Shown one piece after another: positions 1,251-63,738 of a DNA stretch of 64,000 bases. The first letter of the stretch is position 1. Every line of letters begins with the position of its first letter. The translations under genes were made by a program, and so were the position numbers. The notes under the pieces are model-generated. The model was not told the DNA's origin. It did no database searches and saw only the letters and a list, made by a program, of their open reading frames with translations. This stretch comes from a virus: positions 64,001 to 128,000 of the IMG/VR virus record IMGVR_UViG_3300020048_000015; one strand, given 5' to 3'.

Positions 1251-1285
1251 AAAAAAGACCATTCATAACGAATGGTCTTTTTTTT
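1251..1285. terminator. Bidirectional intrinsic terminator
   Basis: aaaagaccattc-ataac-gaatggtctttt with A/T tracts on both sides, between convergent genes. Confidence 0.85.
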
Positions 1286-2513
1286 ATAATTCATCTAATA
1301 ATCTTTCTTTTACATTTACATTATAGTCTTTCCAACTCACAGAAGGTTCCCATCTATCATCAATTCTTATTTTCGGAATATCTATAATTCCTTCTGATAA
1401 AGAATGATTAAATATTTCTGATACTTCTTCTGTTCCTAAGTAATCAATAGTTTCTTCAATATTATCCATAATGCCATCAAAATTTGTTATATCAACTTTT
1501 ATCTCAATTGGACTACCATATTCAAATTTAATAATTTCACCATAATATTCTAATGTACTTTTCAATTCTTCAGAATAATAATCAACTGCTAAATCCACTA
1601 ACATATCATCTTCAGTCCAAGTTAATATATGCCTTATAGTATAATCATCATCCAATTCTTTAACCATATCTTCTAAATCATCATATTCTTCCAAATTATC
1701 TTTTTTACTTAGATAATCTTTAATAATTTTTTTATTATCATTATCCAAACAAGAACGCAAATTATATTCCCATTGTCCATCATAGCTATGATATTCTAAA
1801 TATACCCAGCCTTCACCATCCATTATTTTTTCAAATAAATCAGTATTAACATCAACATAATTTTTAATTTCATCTGGTCTTATTTTTAAAATAAAATCTG
1901 TTTTTAAATCACTACTTGATAAAATTCCTAATTCAATTAACTTAACCTTAGTGTTAAATGTATGGAATACTTCATCAGGAATATCTTCACCAAGTTCTTC
2001 ACTAAACACTTCTTCTAATAAATGTCTAACAATTTTACAATCTTTTCTTAAAAACTTATATGTATCTTGTAAATCCAAATATGTTTTTAAATCAGGGAAG
2101 AATTTATACAAATCATTTATTGGATTCATGCCACATTCAAATTCATCTACACCATATTCAGCAACACCATCCAATGTTGTTAGATAATTATAACTACAAT
2201 CATAATCACCATCTATATATTTTGGACCACCTTTTAAATCTGTTAGTTTATTTCCATAACATTTAAAATCACCACCAACTTCTTTAGGCGCACCATCTAA
2301 CGTAGTTAATTGATTATTAATACAATTAAAACTACCAGTTACCCTATTAAATTTAAGTGGCAGTTTAGTTAATTTTTCTTTTCCTAACCAAACATTATCA
2401 TCTACATCAATTGATCCATCTGGATTTATTGTGTAGTTTTGAATGTTATATTTTTTACAAATCTTATCAATTTCTGATTGATCAAAATTTTCAAATAATT
2501 TTAAATATTTCAT
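1284..2513 (-). CDS. Variable LRR-like family protein (3 repeats) fused to an unrelated acidic ~200-aa C-terminal domain
   Basis: MKYLKLFENF leader, N-cap (NYTINPDGSIDV..LTKLPLKFN), three 21-aa repeats, partial C-cap (QDTYKFLRKDCKIVRHLLEE), then non-family sequence. Confidence 0.85.
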   Translation of the reverse strand: MKYLKLFENFDQSEIDKICKKYNIQNYTINPDGSIDVDDNVWLGKEKLTKLPLKFNRVTGSFNCINNQLTTLDGAPKEVGGDFKCYGNKLTDLKGGPKYIDGDYDCSYNYLTTLDGVAEYGVDEFECGMNPINDLYKFFPDLKTYLDLQDTYKFLRKDCKIVRHLLEEVFSEELGEDIPDEVFHTFNTKVKLIELGILSSSDLKTDFILKIRPDEIKNYVDVNTDLFEKIMDGEGWVYLEYHSYDGQWEYNLRSCLDNDNKKIIKDYLSKKDNLEEYDDLEDMVKELDDDYTIRHILTWTEDDMLVDLAVDYYSEELKSTLEYYGEIIKFEYGSPIEIKVDITNFDGIMDNIEETIDYLGTEEVSEIFNHSLSEGIIDIPKIRIDDRWEPSVSWKDYNVNVKERLLDEL

Positions 2514-3129
2514 ATATAAGTATATCCTTCTATTTTTTCTGGTAATTCTACATTTTTATTATAATATTCACTAAAATCTTTAATTGCATCTTCTAATAAA
2601 TGTTTAACTACTTTACAATCTTTTCTTAAAAAATTAAATGTTTCTTGATAATCTAAATATATCTTAACATCATCAAATAAATCTATTATAGGGCTTATTG
2701 GATTATAAGAACAATAAAAATCCCCACCAACTTCTTTAGGACAACCCATTAAACTGGTTAATTGATTATAATCACAATAAAAATTCCCACCAACATAATT
2801 TGGACAACCAACTAAAGATTTTAATTTATTATCAGAACAATAAAATCCTCCACCAACATATGTTGGTGATCCATCTAAAGATGTTAAATTATTTATATAA
2901 CAATAAAAATCCCCAGAAACTATATTGAATTTAAGTGGAAGCTCTGTTAATTTTTGTTTTCCTAACAAAACATGACCATTTACATCAATAGATCCATCAG
3001 GATTTATTGTGTAGTTTTGAATGTTATATTTTTTACAAATCTTATCAATTTCTGATTGATTAAAGTTTTCAAATAATTTTAAGTATTTCATATATAAGTA
3101 TATCCTTCTATTTTTTCTGGTAATTCAAC
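2403..3129. repeat. 149-bp direct repeat (2403-2551 and 2981-3129) spanning gene junctions
   Basis: Hand alignment gives 6 mismatches in 149 bp. Covers the C-cap end of one gene and the leader/N-cap of the next. Confidence 0.9.
2510..3091 (-). CDS. Variable LRR-like family protein (3 repeats)
   Basis: Leader + N-cap + 3x LTSLxGxPxxVGGxFxCxxNx + C-cap ending ELPEKIEGYTYI. Confidence 0.9.
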   Translation of the reverse strand: MKYLKLFENFNQSEIDKICKKYNIQNYTINPDGSIDVNGHVLLGKQKLTELPLKFNIVSGDFYCYINNLTSLDGSPTYVGGGFYCSDNKLKSLVGCPNYVGGNFYCDYNQLTSLMGCPKEVGGDFYCSYNPISPIIDLFDDVKIYLDYQETFNFLRKDCKVVKHLLEDAIKDFSEYYNKNVELPEKIEGYTYI

Positions 3130-3609
3130 TGATTGATTATAATATTCATTAAAATCGTTTAAAGCTTCTATTAATCTATGTTTAATAATTTTACAATCTT
3201 TTCTTAAAAAATTATATGTTTCTTGATATTCTAAATAAGTCTTAATATTTCTATCAAATAAATTTATTATTGGTGTTATTGGATTATCACTACACACAAA
3301 ATAACCACCAACTTCTTTTGGACAACCATCTAAACTGATTAAGTTATTTTCTGAACAATCAAAATCCCCACCAACATAATTCGGACTTCCTTCTAAATTT
3401 GTTAATTTATTAATCCAACATATAAAATTCCCACTAACTCTATTAAATTTTAATGGGATTTCAGTTAGCTTTTTAAATGCTAAATCAATATTACCATTAA
3501 CATCAATTGATCCATCAGAATTTATTGAATAATTTTTTATCCCAAAGAATCTACACATAGAATCAATTTCTGATTTATTGAAGTTTTCAAATAATTTTAT
3601 GTATTTCAT
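3088..3609 (-). CDS. Variable LRR-like family protein (2 repeats)
   Basis: MKYIKLFENF leader, N-cap, 2 repeats, C-cap ending ELPEKIEGYTYI. Confidence 0.9.
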   Translation of the reverse strand: MKYIKLFENFNKSEIDSMCRFFGIKNYSINSDGSIDVNGNIDLAFKKLTEIPLKFNRVSGNFICWINKLTNLEGSPNYVGGDFDCSENNLISLDGCPKEVGGYFVCSDNPITPIINLFDRNIKTYLEYQETYNFLRKDCKIIKHRLIEALNDFNEYYNQSVELPEKIEGYTYI

Positions 3610-3665
3610 ATATAAGTATATCCTTCTATTTTTTCTGGCAATTCAACACATTCATCATAATTCAT
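3606..3665 (-). CDS. 19-aa mini-ORF consisting only of the family C-terminal motif (MNYDECVELPEKIEGYTYI)
   Basis: Read by hand, not in ORF track. ATG at 3665, TGA overlaps the ATG of the 3609 gene. TAATATATA motif just upstream (3672-3680, minus). Confidence 0.75.
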   Translation of the reverse strand: MNYDECVELPEKIEGYTYI

Positions 3666-3823
3666 ATTTTATATATATTAAAAATACTTGGAACTTTTTT
3701 ATCAAAATATAAGTTATTACCTAAATATGAAATATTTAATTGGGTAGCAACGCTGAAATTAATTAGTGGTATAATATATCTATTTTTAAATAAAGGAAGG
3801 AGATTGATTTTTATATATAGTAT

Positions 3824-5074
3824 ATGAAAATAAAACCGAAAGGATATTGGACAAAAGAAAGATGCTTGGAAGAGGCTCTAAAATACAACACTAGAGGTGA
3901 ATTTCAAAAAAAATCAAAAAAAGCATATCGAGCCGCATTGAAAAATAAATGGATAGACGAGATCTGTTCACATATGGTTCAATTGTTAAATCCAAAAGGA
4001 TACTGGACAAAAGAAAGATGCCAAGAGGAAGCTCTGAAATATAAAACAAGGAAAGAATTTCGAGATAATTCTATTACTTCATACCATACATCATTAAAAG
4101 GTGAATGGATAGATGAAATATGTTTACATATGCCTTCCAAAGTGGAAACTCTTCCACTAGGATATTGGACAAAAGAAAGATGTAAAGAAGAATCTATAAA
4201 ATACACCACAAGGAGAGACTTTAGAATAAAATCAAGAACGGCATATTCTATATCTGTTAAAAGAGGTTGGTTAGATGAAGTTTGCCAACACTTACCTGGA
4301 GAAAAACCAAAGGGATATTGGACAAAAGAAAGATGTTTGGAAGAGGCATTAAAATATAAAACAAGAACTGAATTTGAAAAAAATTCAATTAGTGCTTGTG
4401 TCACTGCTCGTAAAAATAAATGGATAGATGAGATATGTTCACATATGATTATAGTTGGTAATAGATATAAAAGATGTATATATGCTATTGAATTTTCTGA
4501 TAATCATGCTTATATTGGTCTAACATATAATATACAGGTTAGATTTAAAAATCATTTGAGGACAGATAAGTCCAATAGAAGTTCGGTTCGATACCACATA
4601 GATAGAACGGGGATATCCCCAAAATTAATTCAACTAACAGAGTATATTGATACAAAGGAAGCTTCTGAATTAGAAGGAATAGAAAAGAATAAGTATGAAA
4701 ATAATGGATGGATTTTATTAAATAGATCTAAATGTGGCGCAGTTGGTGGTCATACTCCTATATGGACAAAAGAAAAGTGTATTGAGGAAGCATCAAAATA
4801 CAAAACAAATAAAGAGTTTAGGATTAAATCACCAAATGCCTACTGGGCTTGTCAAAGCAAAGGGTGGTTAGAAGAGGTGTGTGAAAATTTAGAATATGCT
4901 AATAACAACAATTGGACATTAGAAAAGTGTATTGAAGAGGCTTTAAAATATAAAACTAGGAAAGAGTTTGAAAAATTCGGAAAAGGAGCTTATGGAAAAT
5001 GTGTAAAAAGTGGTTGGCTAAATGAATTATACTCAAATATACCAGATATAGATAATTTTACTAGACGTAAGTAA
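3824..5074 (+). CDS. GIY-YIG endonuclease with six ~50-aa helical repeats (putative homing endonuclease)
   Basis: CIYAIEFSDNHAYIGLTYNIQVRFKNH (GIY-YIG motif). Four YWTKERC.EEALKYKTR.EF repeats before and two after the nuclease domain. Confidence 0.8.
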   Translation: MKIKPKGYWTKERCLEEALKYNTRGEFQKKSKKAYRAALKNKWIDEICSHMVQLLNPKGYWTKERCQEEALKYKTRKEFRDNSITSYHTSLKGEWIDEICLHMPSKVETLPLGYWTKERCKEESIKYTTRRDFRIKSRTAYSISVKRGWLDEVCQHLPGEKPKGYWTKERCLEEALKYKTRTEFEKNSISACVTARKNKWIDEICSHMIIVGNRYKRCIYAIEFSDNHAYIGLTYNIQVRFKNHLRTDKSNRSSVRYHIDRTGISPKLIQLTEYIDTKEASELEGIEKNKYENNGWILLNRSKCGAVGGHTPIWTKEKCIEEASKYKTNKEFRIKSPNAYWACQSKGWLEEVCENLEYANNNNWTLEKCIEEALKYKTRKEFEKFGKGAYGKCVKSGWLNELYSNIPDIDNFTRRK

Positions 5075-5106
5075 TAAAATTAATAAAATTTAATAATATA
5101 TAATAA

Positions 5107-6360
5107 ATGAAACTAAAGAAATATTTAGAGTTTATAAAAGAAGAAGTGAGAATTTCAAATGTATATATACCAACGTATGAAGAATGTGTTGAGATATGCT
5201 CCCAGGATGAATCTCCTTTTTATGAAACTAAATTAATAGTTGAATCCTATCCTGTTTCGCTTTTCAACTATAGGTTAGCAAAATATAGCGATTTCGTTAC
5301 ACCTTTGCCTTCTAAACCAAGCGTCTCTGGAAAAGAAATGCGTGGTTTATCATTTGTTTTTAACACAGATGGAACACTATATAATAGATATGTTTTACTT
5401 GAAAAGTTTTTTAACTTAAATCAAGTTCCTGAATCTATGTATTCAGTTATAAAAAACTATAAAATAAAATTTGTAAATAACAAAGAAGATGGAAGCATTG
5501 CATCATTTATCAAGCTTCCAAATGGAAAAGTAGTTGGTAAATCTAAGATGGGATTTGACAACGAACAAGCTAATGGTATAAACTATGTTTATAACAACAG
5601 ACCGAAAATAAAAAAGTTTGTTGATTGGTGCTTAAACAATGACATCATACCAATATTTGAATATGTATCACCAGCAAACAGAATTGTTCTAAGATATTTA
5701 GATGAAGATCTAATCTTATTAAGAATGCGTGATAATAAAACAGGAAAACATATTGATTTAAAAAATCATATGGACAAAATCGGTTCTATTAAAATTGCAC
5801 CTTTTGAAGATGATGAAAAAGATTTGGATAAGTTAATTGAAGTAACTGCTACACAAGTAGATAAGGAAGGAATCATTGTTCAAACCGAAGATTCTAATGG
5901 AAATGATTTATTCTTTAAGCTCAAAACACCGTGGTATGTAGCTCGCCACAATTTATTAACAAATGATTTATATAGAGAAAATATATTAATCGGATATATC
6001 TTAGATGATATGATAGATGATTTGTTAGGGCAAATACCAGAAGATGAGAAAGATACCCACGAAAGAATCAATAAAATTATTAATATTGTTAAAAAAGTTC
6101 TTGACCAAAAAGTAAACGATATTAAAAAATTATACCAGGTTTTTGTTTCTATGAACAAAGATAGAAAAGAATTTGCTTTGAAATACTTTAAAGATAAAAA
6201 CTTTAGTTGTGTTATGTCTATGAACAAAGGTGTTGAACCATATGAAATTGCTAAAGATTGGCTAAGAAAGGAAACTGATAGACTTTTTGCAGCAAGAGAT
6301 TTTCTACAAAAAATAGATTCAACAATCTTTTTCAAAGATGCAACAGAAGATGATAATTAA
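5107..6360 (+). CDS. T4 Rnl1-family RNA ligase
   Basis: KEMRGLSF, LEKFFNLNQ, motif I NKEDGS, FEYVSPANRIV, KEGIIV, FFKLKTPWY. N-terminal MKLKKYLEFIKE leader. Confidence 0.9.
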   Translation: MKLKKYLEFIKEEVRISNVYIPTYEECVEICSQDESPFYETKLIVESYPVSLFNYRLAKYSDFVTPLPSKPSVSGKEMRGLSFVFNTDGTLYNRYVLLEKFFNLNQVPESMYSVIKNYKIKFVNNKEDGSIASFIKLPNGKVVGKSKMGFDNEQANGINYVYNNRPKIKKFVDWCLNNDIIPIFEYVSPANRIVLRYLDEDLILLRMRDNKTGKHIDLKNHMDKIGSIKIAPFEDDEKDLDKLIEVTATQVDKEGIIVQTEDSNGNDLFFKLKTPWYVARHNLLTNDLYRENILIGYILDDMIDDLLGQIPEDEKDTHERINKIINIVKKVLDQKVNDIKKLYQVFVSMNKDRKEFALKYFKDKNFSCVMSMNKGVEPYEIAKDWLRKETDRLFAARDFLQKIDSTIFFKDATEDDN

Positions 6361-6364
6361 ACTT

Positions 6365-6396
6365 AAAAGGACTGTAAATTAATTTACAGTCCTTTT
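6365..6396. terminator. Bidirectional intrinsic terminator (perfect 32-bp palindrome)
   Basis: aaaaggactgtaaatt|aatttacagtcctttt between convergent genes. Confidence 0.85.
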
Positions 6397-6397
6397 T

Positions 6398-6721
6398 TTA
6401 ATCTAAATATTCAGCATCACCATCTTCTAAATCAATATATCCTTCAACCCATTTAGTAAAATCTACATTATCTAATCTATCAAACATTTCATTATAAGGA
6501 ACAACTCTATTTAATAAATCTTTTAATATTGAAACATATTCTTTATGTTTGGTAATATCACCAACTATACTTTCCAAATCATCAGGAAAAGTCAATAAGA
6601 TATCACTATCATTATAAAAGAAAGTTCCTTCATAATATACATCATCATATATAATACTTATCATTACTAAGATACCATTTTCCAGTTTACCCAAATATTC
6701 TAAAATTGATATATTAAACAT
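6398..6721 (-). CDS. Hypothetical protein
   Basis: 107-aa ORF in a tightly packed minus-strand run. Confidence 0.7.
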   Translation of the reverse strand: MFNISILEYLGKLENGILVMISIIYDDVYYEGTFFYNDSDILLTFPDDLESIVGDITKHKEYVSILKDLLNRVVPYNEMFDRLDNVDFTKWVEGYIDLEDGDAEYLD

Positions 6722-6956
6722 CTAATTCATCTAATTTTTTAGATCTATTTTCTTCTATTATATTTTTCAAAACACCAATATTATTTAATGTATGATAATA
6801 TGATTCACCCATCTCAGGTCGACCATCAACAATATGAGATAACATATTTTGATACATAGAGTATATTCTATCAATTTCTTTTTCTGTGAAAAAAGAAGTA
6901 CCATCTTTTATAAGGTTTAGGTCTAAATAAATATTTTTAATTTGGTTTATATTCAT
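6714..6956 (-). CDS. Hypothetical protein
   Basis: 80-aa ORF overlapping its neighbour. Ends NRSKKLDELDV. Confidence 0.7.
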   Translation of the reverse strand: MNINQIKNIYLDLNLIKDGTSFFTEKEIDRIYSMYQNMLSHIVDGRPEMGESYYHTLNNIGVLKNIIEENRSKKLDELDV

Positions 6957-6960
6957 AATA

Positions 6961-7224
6961 TTAATCTACTAAAATTTCTATTTTTTTTATTTTATCATCA
7001 GTATCAGTAAATATAATTGATACTTTTGCTAATTTGGTTATTTCTTTTGATTCACCTGTGAACTCATTTACCATAACATCTTTTAGATATTTAACATCTA
7101 ATGTTGGTCTTTCCCCAAGAAATTTTCTCATATCTTCTTCAAGAATATTATAATTCCAATTATCTCGTTTCCAATCAATGTTGGAAACATATTGTCTTAT
7201 TGAAGCTTCTTTTAATGATTGCAT
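6961..7224 (-). CDS. Hypothetical protein
   Basis: 87-aa ORF in operon-like run. Confidence 0.7.
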   Translation of the reverse strand: MQSLKEASIRQYVSNIDWKRDNWNYNILEEDMRKFLGERPTLDVKYLKDVMVNEFTGESKEITKLAKVSIIFTDTDDKIKKIEILVD

Positions 7225-7240
7225 ATTTATTATATTATTT

Positions 7241-7576
7241 TTATGGAATTTGTTTTCTTTTTATATATGTATTTTCATCATTTAAAATTTTTAAAATTTC
7301 ATGTGATTTTTTACATTCATTAATAAAATTATCAATATCTTCTTTTTCTAAAAGAAACCATTCACCTTTTATTTTTTTTGTTTTGTATTTATTATGTAGG
7401 ATTTTTTCAATTTTTGTTCCATATTCAGACTTAAAAACTGATATTATTTTGAAGTCATTTGAATTTCCAGTTTTAAATTCTTTTATTCTATCTTCTACTT
7501 TTCTTTTAGTAAAGCCAATTTTACACCCATCATCTGTTGAAATTAAATATACATTATACATAAAAGTATATATCAT
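7241..7576 (-). CDS. T5orf172/MUG113-like (GIY-YIG-related) domain protein
   Basis: VYLI...KIGFT...RIKEFKTGN...IEKILH......KGEWF pattern. Confidence 0.8.
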   Translation of the reverse strand: MIYTFMYNVYLISTDDGCKIGFTKRKVEDRIKEFKTGNSNDFKIISVFKSEYGTKIEKILHNKYKTKKIKGEWFLLEKEDIDNFINECKKSHEILKILNDENTYIKRKQIP

Positions 7577-7615
7577 AAATATACTTTCTGATTTTCAAAA
7601 ATAATATATATTTAT

Positions 7616-8263
7616 ATGAAATACTTAAAATTATTTGAAAACTTCAATCAATCAGAAATTGATGAAATTTGTAGAAAATATAACATAAAAAACTATACTA
7701 TAAATCCAGATGGTTCTATTGATGTTGATGGGAATGTTTGGTTATCCGATATAAGTTTAACTGAATTACCATTAAAATTTAATAAAGTTTATGGAAGTTT
7801 TGATTGTTCTTGGAATAAATTGACTAATCTAGAAGGATGTCCTAATTATGTTGGTGATAATTTTTCTTGTGTAGCTAATAAATTAACCAGTTTAATAGGA
7901 TGTCCGAATTATGTTGGTGGGAATTTTCATTGTAATGGTAATAAATTGACAAGTTTAGAAGGTTGCCCAGATGAAGTTCGTGGTAATTTTCGTTGTGGTG
8001 CAAACAAATTAACTTCATTAGAAGGTCCTAAAGAAATAGGTGGTGAATTTACTTGTAATAGCAATCCTATAAACTTTATAACAAGATTATTTGGTGATGT
8101 TAAGATTTATTTAGAATATCAAGAAACATATAATTTTTTAAGAAAGGACAATAAAATAGTTAGACACTTATTAGAAGAAGCTTTAAAAGATTATAATGAA
8201 TATTATAAAAAATATGTATCAATTCCAACAATCTATAAAATAAAAGGATATACTTATATATGA
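7616..8263 (+). CDS. Variable LRR-like family protein (4 repeats)
   Basis: Leader + N-cap + 4 repeats + C-cap ending KIKGYTYI. Confidence 0.9.
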   Translation: MKYLKLFENFNQSEIDEICRKYNIKNYTINPDGSIDVDGNVWLSDISLTELPLKFNKVYGSFDCSWNKLTNLEGCPNYVGDNFSCVANKLTSLIGCPNYVGGNFHCNGNKLTSLEGCPDEVRGNFRCGANKLTSLEGPKEIGGEFTCNSNPINFITRLFGDVKIYLEYQETYNFLRKDNKIVRHLLEEALKDYNEYYKKYVSIPTIYKIKGYTYI

Positions 8264-8964
8264 AATACTTAAAATTATTTGAAAACTTCAATAGATTAGA
8301 AATTGATGAAATTTGTAAAGAATATTGGATAGCCAATTATACTATAAATCCAGATGGTTCTATTGATGTTGATGGTGATGTTAATTTTTATAAATTAAAT
8401 TTAACAAAACTACCACTTAAATTTAATAAAGTTTCTGGTAGTTTTGATTGTGCAAAGAATCAATTAACTAATCTAGAAGGATGTCCAAAAGAAGTAGGTG
8501 GTTCTTTTGATTGTTCTTATAATAAATTAACATCATTAGAATGGTGTCCTAATCATGTAGATGGTAGTTTTTATTGTCATAATAATAATTTAACAAATTT
8601 AGAAGGCTGTCCAAATTATGTTGGTTGTGATTTTGATTGTGCTGGTAATCAATTAACCAATTTAATAGGTTGTCCTAATTCAGTTGGTGATTTAAATTGT
8701 TCTTGTAATAATTTAACCACTTTAGAAGGTTATCCAGAAGAAATTGATGGTGACATTTGGATTACCGATAATCCAATATATGATGTTGTATGTTTATTTA
8801 ATTGTATTGTTAGATATTTAGAATATCAAGAAACATATAATTTTATAAGAAAAGATGGTAAAATAGTTAGACACTTATTAGAAGAAGCTTTAAAAGATTT
8901 TAATGAATATTATGATAGATCAGTTGAACTACCAGAAAAAATACAAGGATATACCTACATATGA
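8260..8964 (+). CDS. Variable LRR-like family protein (5 repeats)
   Basis: Leader + N-cap + 5 repeats + C-cap ending ELPEKIQGYTYI. Confidence 0.9.
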   Translation: MKYLKLFENFNRLEIDEICKEYWIANYTINPDGSIDVDGDVNFYKLNLTKLPLKFNKVSGSFDCAKNQLTNLEGCPKEVGGSFDCSYNKLTSLEWCPNHVDGSFYCHNNNLTNLEGCPNYVGCDFDCAGNQLTNLIGCPNSVGDLNCSCNNLTTLEGYPEEIDGDIWITDNPIYDVVCLFNCIVRYLEYQETYNFIRKDGKIVRHLLEEALKDFNEYYDRSVELPEKIQGYTYI

Positions 8965-9371
8965 AATACTTAAAATTATTTGAAGATTATACAAATTTAT
9001 ATCAATCTGATATTATAAGAATACAATTAATTAATGATTTTTTAGAAAATTGTAAGGAAAATCCTGATTATAATATTGAATTACCTGATTATAATGACTT
9101 AATAGATGATTGGGATGGATATGATGACCAAACATATATACAAAATAATGGAAATGAATTTATATATTGGGAAGGTTGGGTAAGAGCTTGTTGGCAAGCA
9201 GCATATAAAAAACCGGAATATAAAGATTTGGGTAAAGATTTAATTATTGAAAAAATTATAAAAGAAAGATTCCCAAGAATAGCAGAAGAGGTAAATTATA
9301 AAATAAACAATTATGATTATTTCAGACATGATGGAATATATATAATGAAAATAACTTTTACTAAAACTTAA
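8961..9371 (+). CDS. Hypothetical protein with MKYLKLFE leader, non-LRR body
   Basis: Starts at the conserved YTYI-ATGA junction. Body unrelated to the family. Confidence 0.75.
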   Translation: MKYLKLFEDYTNLYQSDIIRIQLINDFLENCKENPDYNIELPDYNDLIDDWDGYDDQTYIQNNGNEFIYWEGWVRACWQAAYKKPEYKDLGKDLIIEKIIKERFPRIAEEVNYKINNYDYFRHDGIYIMKITFTKT

Positions 9372-9414: not shown

Positions 9415-9828
9415 ATGATTAAAAACGGAAACACAGTTCTAGTTCATTATACTGGAAAACTAAAAGATGGTACTAAATTTGATTCATCAGAAGGAAGAGA
9501 ACCATTGGAATTTAAAATAGGTACAAACCAAGTAATACCAGGATTCGAAAATGGTTTAATCGGTAAATTTAAAGGTGATAAATTCACTATTAATATTCCT
9601 GTAAAAGAAGCATATGGTGAACATTTACCAGAATATGTCCTCCAAGTTCCAAATTCAAACCTACCTGAAAATGTCCAAGTAGGGCAGATGCTACAAGCAG
9701 ATAGCAATGGTCAAATAATAAATGTTCTTGTAAAAGAAATTTTAGATGAATATTCGGTTTTGGATGCAAATCATTCCCTTGCTGGAAAAGACTTAATTTT
9801 TGATATTGAAATAGTAGATTTCAATTAA
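9415..9828 (+). CDS. FKBP-type peptidyl-prolyl isomerase (SlyD/FkpB-like)
   Basis: VLVHYTGKLKDGTKFDSSEGREPLEF..G..QVIPGFE, AYGE, LDANHSLAGKDLIFDIEI. Confidence 0.93.
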   Translation: MIKNGNTVLVHYTGKLKDGTKFDSSEGREPLEFKIGTNQVIPGFENGLIGKFKGDKFTINIPVKEAYGEHLPEYVLQVPNSNLPENVQVGQMLQADSNGQIINVLVKEILDEYSVLDANHSLAGKDLIFDIEIVDFN

Positions 9829-9838
9829 ATTTTTTTTT

Positions 9839-19354: not shown

Positions 19355-20087
19355 TAGATTAAATTATATTAAAGATACTGTTGGAAACAACTATCTTGGA
19401 ATAAAAATACCACAAACAATTGTTCAGCCTTTCCTGGATATATTAAAAAATATAATAGGTGTTGAAGATTATGATATATATGTTAAGAATCAACAAAATA
19501 GAGATCATGGATCACATCACATTACTGTCATTAATGTTATGGACTATAATAACTTATCTAAGGAATTTGGCATTGATAAATTTGTTAGTTCATTAGATGC
19601 TGCTTTTGATTATAATATAGATGATCTTAAATTGATGGGTGTGGGTAAAGCAGAAAAGTCAGGAAACTGTGCTTATTTTATTGTAGTAAATTCAGAAAAA
19701 TCAGATGCTATAAGAACTAGATATAATCTACCTAAACAAGATTTTCATATAACAATTGGATTTAAATATAAAGATGTATTTGGTGTTAGAAAAAATGAAG
19801 TTATTAAAGAGCATGAACCATTTCTAAAAATACTAAAGAAATACTATTATGATTACAACGAAAGGTTTGAATTCATAAAAGAAATTGATGGATTTGATTT
19901 AGACACTGAAAAAGAAATTGAACCAATTAAAATTGAATCTACTTATGCTACATTTAGAATAGATAATGTTTATTTTAATGTTAGTTTAATAGATGATAAT
20001 TTTAGAATAACTGCTCAATGGGATGGATCTGAAAAAAAACCTATATTAGCTAATACACTAATAGCAAAAAAATTTAAAGAAATATAA
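19344..20087 (+). CDS. 2H phosphoesterase family protein
   Basis: Two HxT motifs (HHITVI, FHITIG). Adjacent to the CCA enzyme. Confidence 0.8.
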   Translation: MKINRLNYIKDTVGNNYLGIKIPQTIVQPFLDILKNIIGVEDYDIYVKNQQNRDHGSHHITVINVMDYNNLSKEFGIDKFVSSLDAAFDYNIDDLKLMGVGKAEKSGNCAYFIVVNSEKSDAIRTRYNLPKQDFHITIGFKYKDVFGVRKNEVIKEHEPFLKILKKYYYDYNERFEFIKEIDGFDLDTEKEIEPIKIESTYATFRIDNVYFNVSLIDDNFRITAQWDGSEKKPILANTLIAKKFKEI

Positions 20088-20359: not shown

Positions 20360-20377
20360 AAAATAAATGAAAATAAA

Positions 20378-23477: not shown

Positions 23478-23933
23478 ATGAAATATTTAAAATTATTTGA
23501 AAATTTTGATCAAACTAAAATTGATGCTATTTGTAAAAAATATGGTATATGGAATTATACAATAAATACTGATGGATCCATTGATGTTAATACTGATGTT
23601 TTATTATATAGAAGAAATCTAACTAAATTACCATTGAAATTTAATAGGGTTTCTGGTTCGTTCCATTGTCAGGATAATTTACTAACCAATTTAGATGGTT
23701 ATCCAAAAGAAATTGGTGGTTTTTCTTTTTATGATCATAATCCAATAACACAAATAATAGATTTATTTGTTAATGCTGACACATATATAGAGTACCAAGA
23801 AACATATAATTTTGTTAGAAAGGATTGTAAAATTGTTAAACACCTTTTAGAAGAAGCTTTAAAGGACTATAATGAATATTATAATAAGAATAAAAAATTA
23901 CCACAAGAAATAAAAGGATATACTTATATATAA
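23478..23933 (+). CDS. Variable LRR-like family protein (1 repeat)
   Basis: Start at MKYLKLFENF (not 23358). N-cap, 1 repeat, C-cap ending EIKGYTYI. Confidence 0.9.
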   Translation: MKYLKLFENFDQTKIDAICKKYGIWNYTINTDGSIDVNTDVLLYRRNLTKLPLKFNRVSGSFHCQDNLLTNLDGYPKEIGGFSFYDHNPITQIIDLFVNADTYIEYQETYNFVRKDCKIVKHLLEEALKDYNEYYNKNKKLPQEIKGYTYI

Positions 23934-24577
23934 TGAAATACTTAAAATTATTTGAAAACTTTGATCAATCAACAATTGATGATATATGTGAAGAATATGG
24001 TATAAAAAACTATACTTTAAATGCTGATGGATCTATTGATGTAAATGGTAATGTTTGGTTATTCTGTAAAGATCTAACTGAATTACCATTAAAATTTAAT
24101 AAGGTTACTGGTTATTTCAATTGTTCTGCTAATAAATTAACCAATTTAGAAGGTGCGCCTAATTATGTAGGAACTGGTTTTTTTTGTTTTAATAATAACC
24201 TAACAAGTTTAATAGGTGGTCCTAAAGAAGTCGTTGGTAAATTTTATATAAAAGGTAATTATTTAACCAATTTAATAGGTGGTCCTAAAGAAGTTATTGG
24301 GGATTTTGATTGCTCAGATAATAAATTAACTAGTTTAGATGGATATCCTAACTATATAAGTGGTTATTTTACTCGCAACGAAAATCCAATAGATACAATA
24401 ATTATATTATTTAGAGGTATTAAAACATATTTAGAATACCAAGAAACATATAATTTTATAAGAAAAGATGGTAAAATAATTAAGCATTTATTTGAAGAAG
24501 CAATTAAAGATTATAATGAATATTATGATGATTGTGTTGAAATGCCAGAAAAAATAGAAGGATATACTTACATATGA
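23933..24577 (+). CDS. Variable LRR-like family protein (4 repeats)
   Basis: Leader, N-cap, 4 repeats, C-cap ending EMPEKIEGYTYI. Confidence 0.9.
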   Translation: MKYLKLFENFDQSTIDDICEEYGIKNYTLNADGSIDVNGNVWLFCKDLTELPLKFNKVTGYFNCSANKLTNLEGAPNYVGTGFFCFNNNLTSLIGGPKEVVGKFYIKGNYLTNLIGGPKEVIGDFDCSDNKLTSLDGYPNYISGYFTRNENPIDTIIILFRGIKTYLEYQETYNFIRKDGKIIKHLFEEAIKDYNEYYDDCVEMPEKIEGYTYI

Positions 24578-25095
24578 AATACTTAAAATTATTTGAAAAT
24601 TTTAATCAATCTGAAATTGATGCTATTTGTAAACAATATAAAATACAAAATTACACAATAAATCCAAATGGATCTATTGATGTTGATGGCAATGTTTATT
24701 TACCTTTAAGAAATCTAAATAAACTACCACTTAAATTTAATAAAGTAACTGGTTGGTTTGATTGTTCTGATAATGAATTGAATAACTTAGAAGGTTGTCC
24801 AAATTATGTAGGTGATATTTTTAATTGTGCTTATAATGAATTAACCAATTTAGATGGTTATCCAAAAGAAGTTGGTCGTGGTTTTTATTGGGATGGAAAT
24901 CCCATATCAGAAATTATATATTTATTTGGATATAGTATTAAAATTTATTTGGAGTATCAAGAAACATATAATTTTGTTAGAAAAGATTGTAAAATAATTA
25001 AGCACTTATTAGAAGAAGCTTTAAAGGACTATAATGAATATTATAATAGTCAGAAAGAATTGCCAAAAAAAATAGATGGATATACTTATATATGA
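24574..25095 (+). CDS. Variable LRR-like family protein (2 repeats)
   Basis: Leader, N-cap, 2 repeats, C-cap ending KKIDGYTYI. Confidence 0.9.
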   Translation: MKYLKLFENFNQSEIDAICKQYKIQNYTINPNGSIDVDGNVYLPLRNLNKLPLKFNKVTGWFDCSDNELNNLEGCPNYVGDIFNCAYNELTNLDGYPKEVGRGFYWDGNPISEIIYLFGYSIKIYLEYQETYNFVRKDCKIIKHLLEEALKDYNEYYNSQKELPKKIDGYTYI

Positions 25096-26210: not shown

Positions 26211-26891
26211 TTAAATTATATCAAAAACAATGCAGGTATCACCAAAATTTTCACCTTTGTAAGACCACCAAATTCCACCCTCCCTCAAGACATCAATCTT
26301 AGGTGGTTTTGATACAAATTCATATCCATCGAAACTTCCATATCTATATTCACTTAACCAATTATACTTTCTAGTATCATAACTTCTATTACCAATATTT
26401 TTCCATTTTCCACATCCCTGAAGATCGTAATTTACATATATAATTCTTGTTCCAACATTAGCAGTCTTGAATATTTGAGAAATTATATCATACATATCTT
26501 TATCTTTAACCATTGGTCTATACATATATATAACATCTAAATTAGAATAATTGAATTTTTTAGCATCTCCATATACTACTGATATATCTTTGTGATATTC
26601 TTTATATTTAGTTTGTATTTCTATTCCACTTGCATCCATCCCAAACTTTTCTGCTAACCTTACAATATTACCAAATCCACATCCAATATCAACAAATTTA
26701 GAACCTTTTAAGTATTTTTCAAAAATAGATGTAATGAATGTACCAACTGGTATGGCATCAAATTTATTATCTAAAGGGGTATTATTTCTATCTTTAAAAC
26801 CACCAATTCTTTTGGCTTTTCTATATAGACTTAGATAGAATCTATCAATTTCAGATTGATCAAAGTTTTCAAATAATTTTAAGTATTTCAT
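26211..26891 (-). CDS. Class I SAM-dependent methyltransferase with LRR-family leader
   Basis: FVDIGCGFG, GIE, GDA, DVIYMYRP. First 16 aa identical to the 1284-2513 gene. Confidence 0.85.
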   Translation of the reverse strand: MKYLKLFENFDQSEIDRFYLSLYRKAKRIGGFKDRNNTPLDNKFDAIPVGTFITSIFEKYLKGSKFVDIGCGFGNIVRLAEKFGMDASGIEIQTKYKEYHKDISVVYGDAKKFNYSNLDVIYMYRPMVKDKDMYDIISQIFKTANVGTRIIYVNYDLQGCGKWKNIGNRSYDTRKYNWLSEYRYGSFDGYEFVSKPPKIDVLREGGIWWSYKGENFGDTCIVFDII

Positions 26892-27259
26892 TATATATAA
26901 GTATAATATTTAATTTCTTTTGGTAATTCTACCTGTTTATCATAATATTCATTAAAATCTTCAATAGCTTCTTCCAATCTATGTTTAACAATTTTAAAAT
27001 CCTTTCTTAAAAAATTATATGTTTCTTGATAGTCTAAATAAATATTCACATCCCCATTAAATAAATCTACTATATCCCATCCTACAATTCTATTAAATTC
27101 AAGTGGTATTTTAGTTAAATCCATCTTATAAAAATCAACATCAGCAAGAACATCAATTGTTCCATCGGTATTTATTGTATAGTATTTAATGTTATATTCT
27201 TTACATATTTTAATAATTTCTGATTTATTAAAGTTTTCAAATAATTTTATGTATAGCAT
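26891..27259 (-). CDS. LRR-like family protein with zero repeats (N-cap fused to C-cap)
   Basis: LTKIPLEFNRIVG joins directly to WDIVDLF..YLDYQETYNFLRKD..EIKYYTYI. Confidence 0.85.
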   Translation of the reverse strand: MLYIKLFENFNKSEIIKICKEYNIKYYTINTDGTIDVLADVDFYKMDLTKIPLEFNRIVGWDIVDLFNGDVNIYLDYQETYNFLRKDFKIVKHRLEEAIEDFNEYYDKQVELPKEIKYYTYI

Positions 27260-58482: not shown

Positions 58483-58492
58483 ATTTTATTTA

Positions 58493-59023: not shown

Positions 59024-59028
59024 TTATT

Positions 59029-59853: not shown

Positions 59854-59854
59854 T

Positions 59855-60541: not shown

Positions 60542-60545
60542 TTAA

Positions 60546-61307: not shown

Positions 61308-61370
61308 TTTATATTTATACTATTTTATTAATATATAAAAAATAATCATCTTTGTTTTAATATATACAAT

Positions 61371-62009
61371 ATGAAATACTTAAAATTATTTGAAAACTTT
61401 AATAATGTTCCATTTAAAGGGTTTTCTGATATTGTCAAATTTGATAATGTTAAAAAAAGAAATATAAATATAAATAATGAAAATCTAATAACAATAGATA
61501 ATGGAAAAACTGTTTTATTAAAAAAAGACACTACCTTATTAGCTAAAGTAATATATGATAAAATTGATGATAAGATTAGTATCAGTATGATAGAATCATA
61601 TGCAAGAGGATATGGGAAAATATTAATGCTTCATTTAATAGAAGAATATGGATATGATAACATCATCACAAAAGTATTAACTAAAGCTGGTCAAAAAATG
61701 ATGGATGATTTAAATGATTTATATAATTTTAAAAAACTATCAAACTTTTTAAATAGAAAAGATTTATTTAAAAGTATAAATGATCAATTAATAATAACTG
61801 TATTAGATAACATCTGTGAATATGGTATAAAAAACACTTTAAAAGCTTTCAAAAATGACATTATAGACAATAAAATAAATAATATAGATATAGAAACATT
61901 AGTTGACATATCATCTTGGATAGACGATTCAGTTCAAAATAATCATAGTATAGATGATAATATTCCAGATTATATCTATGATGAAATAGAAAAATTAAAA
62001 AACCGATAG
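61371..62009 (+). CDS. Leader-bearing protein with a GNAT-like segment
   Basis: MKYLKLFENF; ISMIESYARGYGKILM...LTKAGQKM resembles the GNAT acetyl-CoA motif. Confidence 0.55.
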   Translation: MKYLKLFENFNNVPFKGFSDIVKFDNVKKRNININNENLITIDNGKTVLLKKDTTLLAKVIYDKIDDKISISMIESYARGYGKILMLHLIEEYGYDNIITKVLTKAGQKMMDDLNDLYNFKKLSNFLNRKDLFKSINDQLIITVLDNICEYGIKNTLKAFKNDIIDNKINNIDIETLVDISSWIDDSVQNNHSIDDNIPDYIYDEIEKLKNR

Positions 62010-62029
62010 ATAATTCTATCGGTCTTTTA
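61997..62029. terminator. Bidirectional terminator
   Basis: aaaaaccgataga-taat-tctatcggtctttt between convergent genes. Confidence 0.85.
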
Positions 62030-62031
62030 AT

Positions 62032-63738
62032 TTATATGTAAGTATATCCTTCTATTTTTTCAGGTATTTTCATTATCTTAAGTTCCATCAAAGCATCACC
62101 TAAAAGATTCTTAACTATTTTACAATCATCTCTTAAAAAATTATATTTTTTCTGATATTTTAAATAATTATTAACATTTTTAAAAAGTTTATATACATTA
62201 TATATAGGATTTCCCATACCATAAAAATCACAACCACCCTTCATACGATTTACTATATTTGGGATACCATCTAAACTGGTTAATTGATTATTATTACAAC
62301 CAAACCTACCACTAACTGTTTTAGGACAACCTTCCAAACTTATTAATTTATTATCTGAACAATCAAAAAAACCAGAAAGTGTATTAGGACAACCTTCTAA
62401 AGAAGTTATTTCATTGAAAGAACAAACAAAATAACCACCTACTGTATTAGGACAACCATCAAGTGTGGTTAATTTATTATAATTACAATTAAAACCACCA
62501 TTAACTGTATTAGGACAACCTTCTAATGAGGTTAATTGATTATTATTACAATCAAAATAACCACCAACTTCTTTAGGACTACCTTCTAAGCTATTTATAT
62601 AATTATAACTACAGTCAAAATCACCACCAACATAATTAGGACTACCTTCTAAACCGGTTAATTGATTAGATCCACATTTAAAATTCCCCGAAACCCTATT
62701 AAATTTCAATGGAATTTTAGTTAATCCTTTATAATAAAAATTAACATCACCATTAACATCAATAGATTCATCCGAATTTATAGTATAATTATTAATATTT
62801 AATAGTTTTAATATTTCTTCAACTGCTAAACTATCAAAATTGTAATATGATTCTTCGTTATCATTATAAACATTCTTATGAACATCGTATTTTAAACTTT
62901 TTAAATCTTTATTAAAATGTTGATCTAATATATTCTGAACAGTTTTCTTAAATTCAGGTCTTTTAGTTCCATACATATTTTTACTTGGTAATAATATAAC
63001 ATCTTTATTTTCACCAACAAATGGTTTAATATTTAAAACTGCCAATGGCGATTCAATATTTCTATCAGTTAATTTCACTAAATAAGATATTAATGATCCT
63101 TCTTTTACTTCTTCTATAAGATATTTAATATTTACACCATCTTCTTTATAATCATTTATTTTATCTTTTAAATCTTTAATTTTATTTTGATCATCAGAAA
63201 ATTTAATTTTTTCCAATTCATCCATTAGCTTAGTTAATCTATTGGATTTATCAGTTCCAATGGTCATACAATTAGTCCAATCTCTATCTGTATCAGAACC
63301 AGCAATATCATATGGATGTCTTGAAATAACTACTAATAATTCATCTTTATCAGTTGACACCAATGTCTTTCTTTTTTCATCAGAAACAAATTGTTTAGAC
63401 AATTCTTCATTTTTAAATTTGTTTAATAATTTACCAATTGTAGATGTATTTTTAGCACTTCTAAATTTAGCTACACCTTTTACATAATCTACAATTTCAC
63501 AGTCATTTTCAGCCAAAAATTTATCTATTAATTCATGGGTTGTTGAAATATATCCAGTGACTTCTTCTTTAATCAACGGAATATATATTCTATAATAGTT
63601 TCTATCATTGCTGTATAAATCACCTAATTCTTTAAAAATATCAGCATATCTTTCCTTATCAAAAGCATCTACATATTTCCTAAATTGGGATGGCTTTAAT
63701 GCTTCATTAAAACCAATATAACTTTTTATATATTTCAT
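62032..63738 (-). CDS. Unknown ~300-aa N-domain fused to LRR-like family module (7 repeats)
   Basis: Leader MKYIKSYIGFNE; ISRHPYDIAG..W.NCM domain; then N-cap, 7 repeats (63-bp period measured), shortened C-cap ending EKIEGYTYI. Confidence 0.85.
   Translation of the reverse strand: MKYIKSYIGFNEALKPSQFRKYVDAFDKERYADIFKELGDLYSNDRNYYRIYIPLIKEEVTGYISTTHELIDKFLAENDCEIVDYVKGVAKFRSAKNTSTIGKLLNKFKNEELSKQFVSDEKRKTLVSTDKDELLVVISRHPYDIAGSDTDRDWTNCMTIGTDKSNRLTKLMDELEKIKFSDDQNKIKDLKDKINDYKEDGVNIKYLIEEVKEGSLISYLVKLTDRNIESPLAVLNIKPFVGENKDVILLPSKNMYGTKRPEFKKTVQNILDQHFNKDLKSLKYDVHKNVYNDNEESYYNFDSLAVEEILKLLNINNYTINSDESIDVNGDVNFYYKGLTKIPLKFNRVSGNFKCGSNQLTGLEGSPNYVGGDFDCSYNYINSLEGSPKEVGGYFDCNNNQLTSLEGCPNTVNGGFNCNYNKLTTLDGCPNTVGGYFVCSFNEITSLEGCPNTLSGFFDCSDNKLISLEGCPKTVSGRFGCNNNQLTSLDGIPNIVNRMKGGCDFYGMGNPIYNVYKLFKNVNNYLKYQKKYNFLRDDCKIVKNLLGDALMELKIMKIPEKIEGYTYI

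Follow-up and report, generated by a model that had tools for sequence, protein, structure and literature searches.

Constant caps enclosing a variable number of hypervariable 21-residue leucine-rich repeat (LRR) units characterize a family of small proteins that has at least 26 members in the 182,728-bp virus record IMGVR_UViG_3300020048_000015. We hold, with modest confidence, that the family is probably an inherited, recombining panel of specific binding modules with paralogue-specific targets, acting in the infected cell. Ten of the members lie in the window analysed here (64,000 nucleotides, positions 64,001 to 128,000 of the record), and all ten open reading frames (ORFs) that the initial annotation had assigned to the family translate as claimed (Table 1). 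Matches between paralogues reach E = 1e-21 to 1e-95, so that their resemblance is not due to chance. Counting over the whole record and its relatives, which had been put forward as a check on the family, also gave about 17 members in a 276-kb relative, and more than 2,300 homologues without a name are present in metagenomes. No comparable hypervariable capped LRR family has been reported for phages in the literature searched. By its gene content the carrier is a giant uncultured phage related to the Mahaphages; the record encodes a T4-type topoisomerase II, SSB, Rnl1, DNA polymerase and helicase, in agreement with the earlier description of the genes as phage-encoded, and the closest relatives of its topoisomerase are encoded by the Mahaphage genomes of 634 and 642 kb.

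Table 1. LRR family members and associated features in the window
Feature	Coordinates	Strand	Remarks
409-aa paralogue, 3 units	1284..2513	-	leader, N-cap, units and shortened C-cap (first part only kept), then about 230 aa of unrelated extension
193-aa paralogue, 3 units	2510..3091	-	start codon and stop codon of the upstream gene overlap (ATGA)
173-aa paralogue, 2 units	3088..3609	-	opens a three-gene array
TTAATATATA motif	3672..3681		by 3088..3609, the first gene of the array
215-aa paralogue, 4 units (one 20 residues long)	7616..8263	+	
234-aa paralogue, 5 units	8260..8964	+	protein used for the AF2 model
136-aa non-LRR ORF	8961..9371	+	starts with the family leader (MKYLKLFEDY); closes the 7616-9371 array
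151-aa paralogue, 1 unit	23478..23933	+	frame also open from an upstream ATG at 23358
214-aa paralogue, 4 units	23933..24577	+	
173-aa paralogue, 2 units	24574..25095	+	
methyltransferase-like ORF	26211..26891	-	opens with the first 16 residues of the LRR family
122-aa paralogue, 0 units	26891..27259	-	N-cap directly joined to C-cap
568-aa fusion, 7 units	62032..63738	-	300-aa N-terminal domain, then N-cap, units and C-cap; no MKYLKLFENF leader

The common N-cap and C-cap described in the initial annotation are found in every type-B member, as a head (MKYLKLFENF...NYTINPDGSIDV...LTKLPLKFNxVxGxFxCxxN) and a tail (NPI...YLEYQETYNFLRKD...GYTYI), and the record also holds a second subtype that lacks the MKYLKLFENF leader and has a different tail. 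The N-cap includes one further LRR unit, so that each solenoid has at least one turn more than its unit count suggests. For the 409-aa paralogue nothing exceeded the Pfam cut-off and an Atlas search gave no usable match, and the fold of its extension was not recognised. A position-weight scan for the 21-residue unit gave, in window order, 3, 3, 2, 3 (plus one unit of 20 residues), 5, 1, 4, 2, 0 and 6 (plus one irregular unit), which reproduces the earlier counts of 3, 3, 2, 4, 5, 1, 4, 2, 0 and 7 when these two units are included. The unit is of the type VxGxFxCxxNxL and fits the described VxGxLxLxxNxL class. Among 122 units, drawn from the record and one relative, entropy is at most 0.34 bits at the framework positions 1, 4, 6, 8 and 20, against 3.3–3.6 bits at positions 14, 16, 18 and 19, each of which accepts 17–19 residue types; the contrast that had been noticed between a fixed framework and freely varying surroundings of FxCxxN thus has a numerical basis, and the 122 units show 115 distinct four-residue signatures. 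In terms of the LRR core motif, the four variable positions correspond to x3, x5, x7 and x8, which sit on the concave strand in solved LRRs.

The family proteins are predicted, with high confidence, to be LRR solenoids. The AF2 model of the 234-aa paralogue (pLDDT 93.6, pTM 0.87) matches solved LRR solenoids only, as had been expected: the Foldseek matches were IpaH, SspH and YopM, and alignment to LRR proteins with VIA-align gave Z-scores of 11–15 and rmsd values of 2.4–4.2 Å over 135–167 residues. DSSP assigns a strand to unit positions 16–17 of the model, and each unit has a second short strand as well. The family profile aligns in register with InlJ (3bz5; E = 2.9e-34), placing the family cysteine on the ladder cysteine, and the best NCBIfam match is internalin_J, with scores of 37–55 bits where the cut-off is 1700. 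Taken together, the register of the LRR motif, the strands assigned by DSSP and the alignment to InlJ predict that the four variable residues share one concave face around the F-x-C strand.

Lysine and isoleucine, the commonest residues of this AT-rich genome, are depleted five- to sixfold at the variable positions, and Tyr (2.8-fold), His (2.4-fold) and Asp, Asn and Ser (about twofold each) are enriched; these positions are therefore not merely unconstrained, and their composition is binding-site-like. Nei–Gojobori omega was 2.5–2.9 at the variable codons (bootstrap CI 1.7–5.0) and 0.2 at framework codons. When pairs were picked from codons 1–10 alone, pN was 0.51–0.56 at the variable codons and pS was 0.19–0.27 at interleaved codons unused for picking (pN/pS about 2.1; CI 1.5–3.3). 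The anticipated excess of non-synonymous change was thus recovered, at about twice the synonymous change, although omega values above 1 could partly be an artefact, because pN is nearly saturated in every pair class (0.51–0.60) and the strong A/T codon bias lowers pS. The view of the initial annotation that the family is a diversified repertoire of binders holds as regards fold class, site-specific variability, composition and the excess of non-synonymous change, but that the variable face binds ligands is something that we infer. The ligands would most probably be proteins, with the host defence proteins suggested in the initial annotation as hypothetical targets; a face rich in Tyr, Asp, Asn and Ser would suit carbohydrates equally well. 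The fusion of the LRR to other domains, both in the window and in homologues (PcfJ-like, DUF4116, phosphoribosyltransferase and GH19 domains), is in keeping with its use as a recognition module, and the proteins are expected to act in the cytoplasm.

A refinement compatible with the binder panel, possible but on the whole rather doubtful, is that the proteins are packaged in the capsid and injected. The 10-residue leader MKYLKLFENF ends in L-F-E, and T4 gp21 cuts after (L/I)-x-E; the resemblance of this end to the T4 capsid-targeting sequence is only a lead. By analogy, leader-bearing proteins would enter the prohead core, the prohead protease would cut after Glu8, and the mature LRR protein would pass into the next host with the DNA and block host defence proteins there, as T4 IPI* does. 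The T4 internal proteins are diverse anti-restriction proteins with only the capsid-targeting sequence in common (PMC3012670). The leader likewise opens 21 ORFs of the record, at least seven of them non-LRR, and 16 ORFs (about six non-LRR genes) of the relative G001, which encodes an S77/S80 prohead protease. In homologues down to 45% identity, its residues F7 and E8 are conserved to 90% or more, and residues 1–7 are disordered in the model (pLDDT <50). Both synonymous codons are used for Tyr3 and for Asn9, so that the leader is not a single stretch of DNA copied recently, and the other subtype begins at the first helix, which makes the leader a separable module. However, the record, which is incomplete, has no prohead protease or head module, at least 20 packaged species would be unusually many, and no homology between the leader and the T4 sequence is detectable. 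Furthermore, some of the sharing runs over 16–22 residues and looks like recombination chimeras, so that the leader could spread by junction recombination without any function; the methyltransferase-like ORF is such a leader chimera and no LRR protein.

It is unlikely that the family consists of virion-surface adhesins, in which the caps would attach the proteins to the tail or head, leaving the variable faces to bind host surface structures and giving a broad or switchable host range. A precedent, the LRR-bearing DUF7941 'fibre cloud', has been proposed in phage Goslar, where paralogues combining a constant docking module with LRR or carbohydrate-binding domains are suggested to be host-recognition elements (PMC13742148). 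The repeat type also occurs in T9SS-sorted surface proteins of Flavobacterium, once beside a GH19 domain, and the composition of the face would suit glycans. The neighbours of the LRR genes, however, are replication, RNA-repair and chaperone genes instead of structural genes, and the proteins are very small (122–234 aa) and show no recognisable module for fibre formation or trimerisation; a member without any repeat exists, and at least 26 paralogues are many for a single virion.

Still less probable is a role as substrate adaptors, in which all paralogues would dock through the C-cap or the leader on one shared enzyme or machine (the phage Lon-like protease, for example, or a modifying enzyme) and recruit different substrates through the variable face. 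Poxvirus ankyrin/F-box proteins and the IpaH LRR-enzyme effectors work in this way, and the structural neighbours IpaH and SspH pick their substrates through the LRR. The C-cap forms a folded mini-domain some 60 residues long, better conserved than a plain cap would need, but the tail of the second subtype differs. Two paralogues fuse the LRR to a conserved enzyme-like N-terminal domain, which in the 568-aa fusion carries the invariant motif SRHPYD..G..T.R.W..CM and is modelled with a pLDDT of 87, but its assignment as GNAT-like is weak, with structural matches at Z 4.3–6.0. A gene for a Lon-type protease adjoins one paralogue outside the window, an adjacency seen only once.

Comparison of strains bears on how the panel would have arisen. 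In L024, a 94–97% identical contig from another sample, the orthologue of 8260..8964 differs at 20 of 705 nucleotides (97% identity), with 13 non-synonymous and seven synonymous changes, none of them in a hypervariable codon, so that the specificity of this paralogue has been kept. The changes between close orthologues lie in the caps and spare the face, a pattern that does not resemble a rapid arms race still under way. Differences between strains take the form of whole genes and whole units: gene 7616..8263 is absent from L024, and P0011, the orthologue of 2510..3091 from another sample, has five units instead of three between identical caps, on a contig that lacks 3088..3609. The junction at 2403–2551 differs from its copy at 2981–3129 at only six of 149 nucleotides. 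Since the record yielded no reverse transcriptase, the 97%-identical orthologue keeps its face and strains differ by whole genes or repeats, the diversity is, on these comparisons, inherited and not programmed. Rewriting of the faces within the phage life cycle, as in a true VLR system or by a diversity-generating retroelement, is close to refuted by these same observations and by variable residues that are not confined to adenine-encoded positions, its sole support being the cap, variable modules, cap layout with site-restricted variability.

Under the inherited panel of binders, small signal-less LRR proteins would form one recombining multigene family of a Mahaphage-related giant phage, each a short solenoid of InlJ-like cysteine-ladder units enclosed by constant N- and C-caps, of which the C-cap is itself folded. 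The four residues that vary per unit and per paralogue would give every paralogue its own surface, and each would have a binding partner of its own among the macromolecules of the host (or phage), most probably a protein, with a specificity set by the face residues and the unit number. New specificities may arise when genes duplicate, when units are gained or lost and when copies recombine at the conserved caps and junctions, and selection on the face would then act on the newly arisen variants.

The initial annotation likened the family to the variable lymphocyte receptors (VLRs) of lampreys. The layout indeed agrees with that of lamprey and hagfish VLRs, in which an N-cap and a C-cap flank LRR modules that vary in number and have their variable residues on the concave strand, and a hagfish VLR (2o6q) is among the structural matches (Z 11.2). 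However, the caps are unrelated (the Pfam LRRNT score of the phage protein is just 12.8 bits), the units have 21 and not 24 residues, and the phage diversity is inherited in separate genes, whereas that of VLRs is assembled somatically. IpaH, SspH and YopM, the top Foldseek matches, are likewise short bacterial LRR solenoids that pick protein targets inside the target cell, and the family profile matches SspH2 with E = 1.9e-15, but the matches are confined to the LRR part; the phage proteins have another unit type and other caps, no NEL ligase domain and no type III secretion context. T4 IPI–III share with the family a short conserved N-terminal leader, ending in an (L/I)-x-E motif, on small proteins that are otherwise unrelated and turn over fast, in plastic parts of the genome; their leader is non-homologous, the bodies here belong to one LRR family, with a few others besides, and packaging and cleavage are putative here. 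Large virus-encoded LRR families are also known in CroV (FNIP/FGxxFN LRRs; PMC9525666) and in entomopoxviruses (the 'leucine-rich repeat gene family' in BFVD), and our BFVD matches were LRR proteins of uncultured Caudovirales, Marseillevirus and Mimiviridae, but the giant-virus and entomopoxvirus families have other repeat classes and caps, and those viruses infect eukaryotes.

At the level of the repeat, the phage unit fits VxGx(F)x(C)xxNxL exactly within the class with the core VxGxLxLxxNxL (Miyashita et al. 2014, as summarised in PMC8181103), and shares with the IRREKO class (PMC2946307) a length of 21 residues, tolerance of Cys at position 6 of the core and the presence of a second, short strand in each unit. 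Both are repeat classes of bacteria and unicellular eukaryotes, and these accounts describe neither a capped family nor its expansion in a phage nor hypervariable positions. Closest by sequence is the LRR of Listeria InlJ (3bz5), the 'cysteine ladder', which has the same 21-residue period, the same Cys in place of the second core Leu (xLxCxxNxLTxL) and a structural match of Z 11.1. The phage family differs from InlJ in lacking a signal peptide, internalin cap, Ig-like domain and cell-wall anchor, and in the second half of its unit, LxGxPxxV and not LDVxxxxxL; it has its own N-cap and C-cap, and is small, phage-encoded and, by its sequence, cytoplasmic.

All ten LRR open reading frames (ORFs) reported for the window by the initial annotation are present and translate as it described, and its repeat counts were recovered by scanning for the 21-residue unit with position weights. 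The N-cap itself ends with an additional unit, LTKLPLKFNxVxGxFxCxxN, so that the solenoids are one turn longer than the repeat count. The family has 26 members in the whole record and about 17 in G001 (IMGVR_UViG_3300020048_006428; 276 kb, estimated to be 47% complete), the nearest relative among the genomes compared. Two subtypes exist among the 26: the one in the window bears the N-terminal leader MKYLKLFENF, whereas the other starts at the first helix and has a different amphipathic tail. Seven members of this second, leaderless subtype form a tandem array outside the window, in which the C-terminal tail of the intact members reads ...AEIxRLxRExKLNxLL and one member contains a perfect internal duplication of two units (126 nt).

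Units were analyzed as a set of 122, taken from the record and G001. They are tandem 21-residue units with a core of the LxxLxLxxNxL type, as in the LRR superfamily, and their conserved residues are L1, L4, V11, G12/13, F15, C17 and N20. A solenoid had been expected, and the AlphaFold2 model of the five-unit paralogue 8260–8964 is confident (mean pLDDT 93.6, pTM 0.87, with an input alignment of 31 sequences), is disordered at residues 1–7 only, and superposes on solved LRR proteins. Each unit of the model has two short strands, at positions 11–12 and 16–17, and the C-cap is a folded helical mini-domain that includes the terminal YTYI as a strand. The best PDB matches by Foldseek are the LRR domains of IpaH, SspH and YopM (probability 1.0, E ~1e-3, TM ~0.5); by VIA-align, which is independent of Foldseek, the top matches are all LRR proteins (Z 11–15, rmsd 2.4–4.2 Å, 135–167 residues), InlJ and hagfish VLR included. 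Pfam LRR_4 reaches at most 19.2 bits against a cut-off of 27, in two of the ten proteins, and many homologues have a precomputed PF12799 match; the sub-threshold Pfam LRR scores reflect the sensitivity of the model, not the fold.

The repeat type is already known. It resembles that of internalin J (InlJ) in its 21-residue period and in the Cys at the second core position (C17, in 95 of the 122 units), and the 'cysteine ladder' structure 3bz5 of InlJ aligns in register with the family profile at E = 2.9e-34, the family Cys falling on the ladder Cys. However, the proteins are not orthologues of internalin J: the NCBIfam model NF033187 is matched by the repeats alone, with 23–55 bits against a cut-off of 1700, and a hydrophobic N-terminus is absent, whereas internalin J has a signal peptide, an internalin cap and an anchor. 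The unit consensus ...V-G-G-x-F-x-C-x-x-N-x-L... matches the 'novel' class VxGxLxLxxNxL of LRRs (Miyashita et al. 2014), for which the summary in PMC8181103 gives V-x-G-x-(L/F/C)-x-(L/F/C)-x-x-(N/C)-x-L, and the 21-residue period and second strand per unit recall the IRREKO class (PMC2946307). The NEL ligase domain of IpaH and SspH is absent, the NCBIfam SspH2 match covering profile positions 213–345 of 788, which are the LRR part. No family of Pfam, PHROGs or NCBIfam scored over its cut-off with the LRR proteins, and neither Pfam nor NCBIfam contains a model of the capped family. The C-cap gave weak Plasmid_parti matches (E 1e-3 to 5e-2), which are likely to be noise. A protein search returned 2,344 related clusters of similar length, nearly all unnamed, on contigs of up to 354 kb. 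Among deposited phage genomes the capped form was found only in uncultured phages of 630–735 kb; the same type of repeat, in eight units but without these caps, occurs in a protein of a Vibrio phage. BFVD holds viral LRR proteins under a generic name only, and our literature search found no description of such a phage LRR family.

Entropy is at most 0.34 bits at positions 1, 4, 6, 8 and 20 of the unit, and 3.3–3.6 bits, with 17–19 residue types each, at positions 14, 16, 18 and 19, which give 115 different four-residue signatures in the 122 units. Counted from the core F15-x-C17-x-x-N20, these four are x3, x5, x7 and x8 of LxxLxLxxN, the positions that line the concave sheet in solved LRRs. 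This predicted placement is consistent with the DSSP strand of the model as well as with the alignment to InlJ. Tyr (2.8-fold), His (2.4-fold) and Asp, Asn and Ser (each about 2-fold) are enriched at the variable positions, and Lys and Ile, the commonest residues in the genome, are depleted 5–6-fold, a composition that differs from the mutation-bias expectation. Binding sites are typically rich in Tyr, Ser, Asp and Asn on their surface. The diversified binder repertoire proposed at the outset is supported by structure, variability, composition and codon evidence; such faces would suit glycans as well as proteins.

For disjoint nearest-neighbour pairs of units, the Nei–Gojobori omega at the four variable codons is 2.5–2.9 (bootstrap 95% CI 1.7–5.0), compared with about 0.2 at framework codons. 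Choosing pairs by similarity biases dS downward, and the test was therefore repeated with pairs chosen on codons 1–10 only. With this design, pN at the variable codons is 0.51–0.56 and pS 0.27–0.36, pS is 0.19–0.27 at interleaved codons unused for pair choice, and the ratio is about 2.1 (CI 1.5–3.3). The non-synonymous excess is suggestive, not proof, because pN at the variable codons is near saturation in every pair class and pS is lowered by A/T codon bias. An IQ-TREE codon partition model gave relative rates of 3.4, 0.64 and 0.30 for variable, intermediate and framework codons, respectively, figures that are weakly usable, the model being over-parameterized for 120 units (tree length 210, more parameters than sites). 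The first two units of one paralogue outside the window (record 19961–20524) share 98% identity when the variable codons are excluded, yet two of their four variable residues and the residue at position 21 differ. No RNA run was listed among the public runs that contain the sequence, and Logan contigs from four DNA runs were broken inside the LRR genes, with paralogues piled up, so that polymorphism at the variable positions and unit-number variants were not readable there.

All LRR members are complete inherited ORFs, and no reverse transcriptase (RVT_1) match was found in the 183-kb incomplete record, whereas control genomes did match. L024, a contig from another sample, is 94–97% identical to 5331–8984 and lacks gene 7616–8263; its orthologue of 8260–8964 carries 20 substitutions (13 non-synonymous and seven synonymous), mostly in the caps and none in the variable codons, and has the same face. 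Two orthologues on other contigs were compared at the level of protein and gene order. P0011, the orthologue of 2510–3091 on a second related contig, has five units instead of three and caps identical in the protein alignment, and its contig lacks both 3088–3609 and the neighbouring GIY-YIG endonuclease gene. P0002, an 83% orthologue of 8260–8964, is a mosaic with a divergent N-cap, two units nearly identical to those of the window and one replaced unit. With complete ORFs, a face kept in L024, differences by whole genes and units, and no reverse transcriptase match, we conclude that the diversity of the faces is inherited. Within the arrays each gene's stop overlaps the next start (ATGA), and the junction 2403–2551 differs from its copy 2981–3129 at six of 149 nt, the repeat cores being strongly different. 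Duplication and, at the conserved caps and junctions, unequal crossing-over and gene conversion give rise to new faces, each of which is then kept. Genes of GIY-YIG homing-endonuclease-like and T5orf172/MUG113 type adjoin LRR arrays of the window (Table).

The phage origin of the record is borne out by its gene content and its topoisomerase. The window encodes Hsp70, T4-type RNA ligase 1, a CCA-adding enzyme, a GAF-PAS histidine kinase, a gp32-like SSB, homing endonucleases and a long block of nucleotide-sugar genes, and the record beyond it a T4-type topoisomerase II, DNA polymerase, helicase and a Lon-like protease. The topoisomerase is nearest (~60% identity) to those of the uncultured phages LR745206 (634,780 bp) and LR756502 (642,428 bp), so that the record is probably a piece of a very large phage. 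The record is 182,728 bp long, the window being its bases 64,001–128,000; it is 84% complete by the CheckV estimate, end repeats were not found, and the G+C content is 23–28%. A search for tRNA genes in the record was negative, so that tRNAs give no clue to the host, which probably belongs to the Bacteroidota. Two short ORFs match the T4 major capsid family Gp23 weakly (21.8 bits against a cut-off of 24.4) and are fragments, not a full capsid gene. Three ORFs scanned in a 20-kb co-oriented block resemble a nucleotide-sugar epimerase, a nucleotidyltransferase and a PRK/uridine-kinase-like protein; the block may encode a glycan or modified-nucleotide pathway.

Around the LRR arrays, the histidine kinase gene overlaps that of a receiver-only response regulator (Response_reg, 32 bits), the pair lying directly 5' of array 23478–25095 in the same orientation; the array is followed by a 198-residue protein with a coiled-coil-like stretch and a hydrophobic C-terminal segment. 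Chaperone-type genes, for Hsp70 and an FKBP peptidyl-prolyl isomerase, stand beside two arrays. The motif TTAATATATA occurs in 13 copies in the window versus 4.8 expected, mostly upstream of ORF starts (~5–60 nt in measured cases), and the starts examined have no obvious Shine-Dalgarno sequence before them. The motif may be a phage promoter, and some transcripts may be nearly leaderless.

Table. Positions of features in and around the LRR arrays (window coordinates unless marked 'record')
Feature	Position	Strand	Remark
Hsp70 gene	46–1248	+	cut by window start
GIY-YIG homing-endonuclease-like	3824–5074	+	adjoins LRR array
T5orf172/MUG113	7241–7576	-	adjoins LRR array
Leader-bearing non-LRR ORF	8961–9371	+	
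FKBP peptidyl-prolyl isomerase	9415–9828	+	beside LRR array
Histidine kinase and response regulator	21274–23476	+	overlapping genes
Leader-bearing non-LRR ORF	26211–26891	-	
Leader-bearing non-LRR ORF	35102–35350	+	
Leader-bearing non-LRR ORF	38597–38977	+	
Gp23-like fragment	39725–40417	-	below cut-off
Gp23-like fragment	~40646–40732	-	below cut-off
Co-oriented ORF block	40725–61307	-	
Leader-bearing non-LRR ORF	61371–62009	+	
300-residue N-domain	62839–63738	-	invariant motif SRHPYD..G..T.R.W..CM
TTAATATATA copies	3672, 17885, 18137, 27274, 30592, 35088, 35701, 38979, 61357, 63770, others		
Tandem array of leaderless subtype	record 3423–6587		seven members

The 300-residue N-domain is found in the 568-residue paralogue 62032–63738 and in one paralogue outside the window. 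It is widespread in large-phage proteins (278 clusters, with homologues in Agrobacterium, Ralstonia and Erwinia jumbo phages), where it is joined to LRR, DUF4116, HEAT, IF3_N-like or DUF1566 modules. In 62032–63738 its invariant residues include His141, Asp144 and Cys157. Its model has a pLDDT of 87, and nearly all of the 50 VIA-align matches listed are GNAT-fold acyltransferases, at a weak Z of 4.3–6.0; no match better than E = 0.07 came from Foldseek against the PDB, Pfam gave no match, and an Atlas search returned viral hypothetical clusters only. The predicted fold is at best weakly GNAT-like. The 230-residue extension of 1284–2513 is unrelated to this domain (hhalign probability 0.1), and an Atlas search with it yielded no usable match. 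In longer homologues the LRR type is joined to PcfJ-like, phosphoribosyltransferase, GH19 and serpin domains, and the same repeat type occurs in Flavobacterium T9SS cargo proteins. Judging from these varied fusions, the LRR appears to behave as a portable recognition module.

The leader forms the first residues of 21 ORFs of the record, at least seven of them non-LRR, and its exact sequence begins 16 ORFs in G001, of which about six lie outside LRR genes. Homologues down to 45% identity retain F7 and E8 in at least 90% of cases, Tyr3 and Asn9 each use both synonymous codons, the leader is disordered in the model of 8260–8964, and the other LRR subtype is without it; sequence and model thus offer evidence for a functional, separable peptide. 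Five non-LRR ORFs of the window begin with MKY(L/I)KLFE(N/D)(F/Y). Two of these, 26211–26891, which resembles a SAM-dependent methyltransferase, and 35102–35350, have 16–22 N-terminal residues in common with the LRR family and look like recombination chimeras.

The L-F-E end of the leader resembles the (L/I)-x-E of the T4 capsid-targeting sequence, after which T4 gp21 cleaves. In T4, the internal proteins counteract restriction and are diverse, with only their capsid-targeting sequence in common (PMC3012670). G001 encodes an S77/S80 prohead protease domain that scores over the cut-off; a Peptidase_S77 search of the record, which has no head module, gave no match, and neither did the control genomes, so that this result says nothing about absence. 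Given this parallel and the protease of G001, capsid targeting through the leader is a reasonable lead, if an unlikely one. That leader-tagged proteins are loaded into the capsid, trimmed after Glu8 and injected, each neutralizing a different host defence protein, is distinctly improbable. If the leader is a packaging signal, the injected proteome of these phages would be definable from sequence alone.

To our knowledge, most counter-defence proteins described from phages to date are encoded by single genes that are unrelated to one another. The role of host-defence inhibitors suggested for the LRR proteins is a guess. They might instead be virion adhesins, by analogy with the LRR-bearing DUF7941 proteins of phage Goslar, for which that role has been proposed (PMC13742148). 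A further rival reading would make them adaptors for one shared enzyme. As binders, a large phage family in which one scaffold is kept and only the face varies would be a natural library, the targets of which could be found systematically by pull-downs or co-folding screens. The family is abundant, with more than 2,300 clusters in metagenomes, and is carried by the largest phages known, a group with a biology that has hardly been studied; it is currently invisible to annotation because it has no Pfam or NCBIfam model. Such an LRR, small, stable and of the cysteine-ladder type, offers four designable positions in each turn and may also be useful as a scaffold for binders.

If packaged as inhibitors, the leader-tagged proteins would amount to a greatly expanded, modular T4 IPI* on an evolvable LRR scaffold. 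The likeness to VLRs drawn by the initial annotation holds for the architecture but not for the LRRNT/LRRCT caps, the 24-residue modules or somatic assembly: the period is 21 residues, compared with 24 in LRRV modules, and the caps have sequences of their own, Pfam LRRNT reaching 12.8 bits against a cut-off of 25.8 in one protein. The main difference from both VLRs and diversity-generating retroelements is that the diversity of the LRR family is inherited and its faces are kept.
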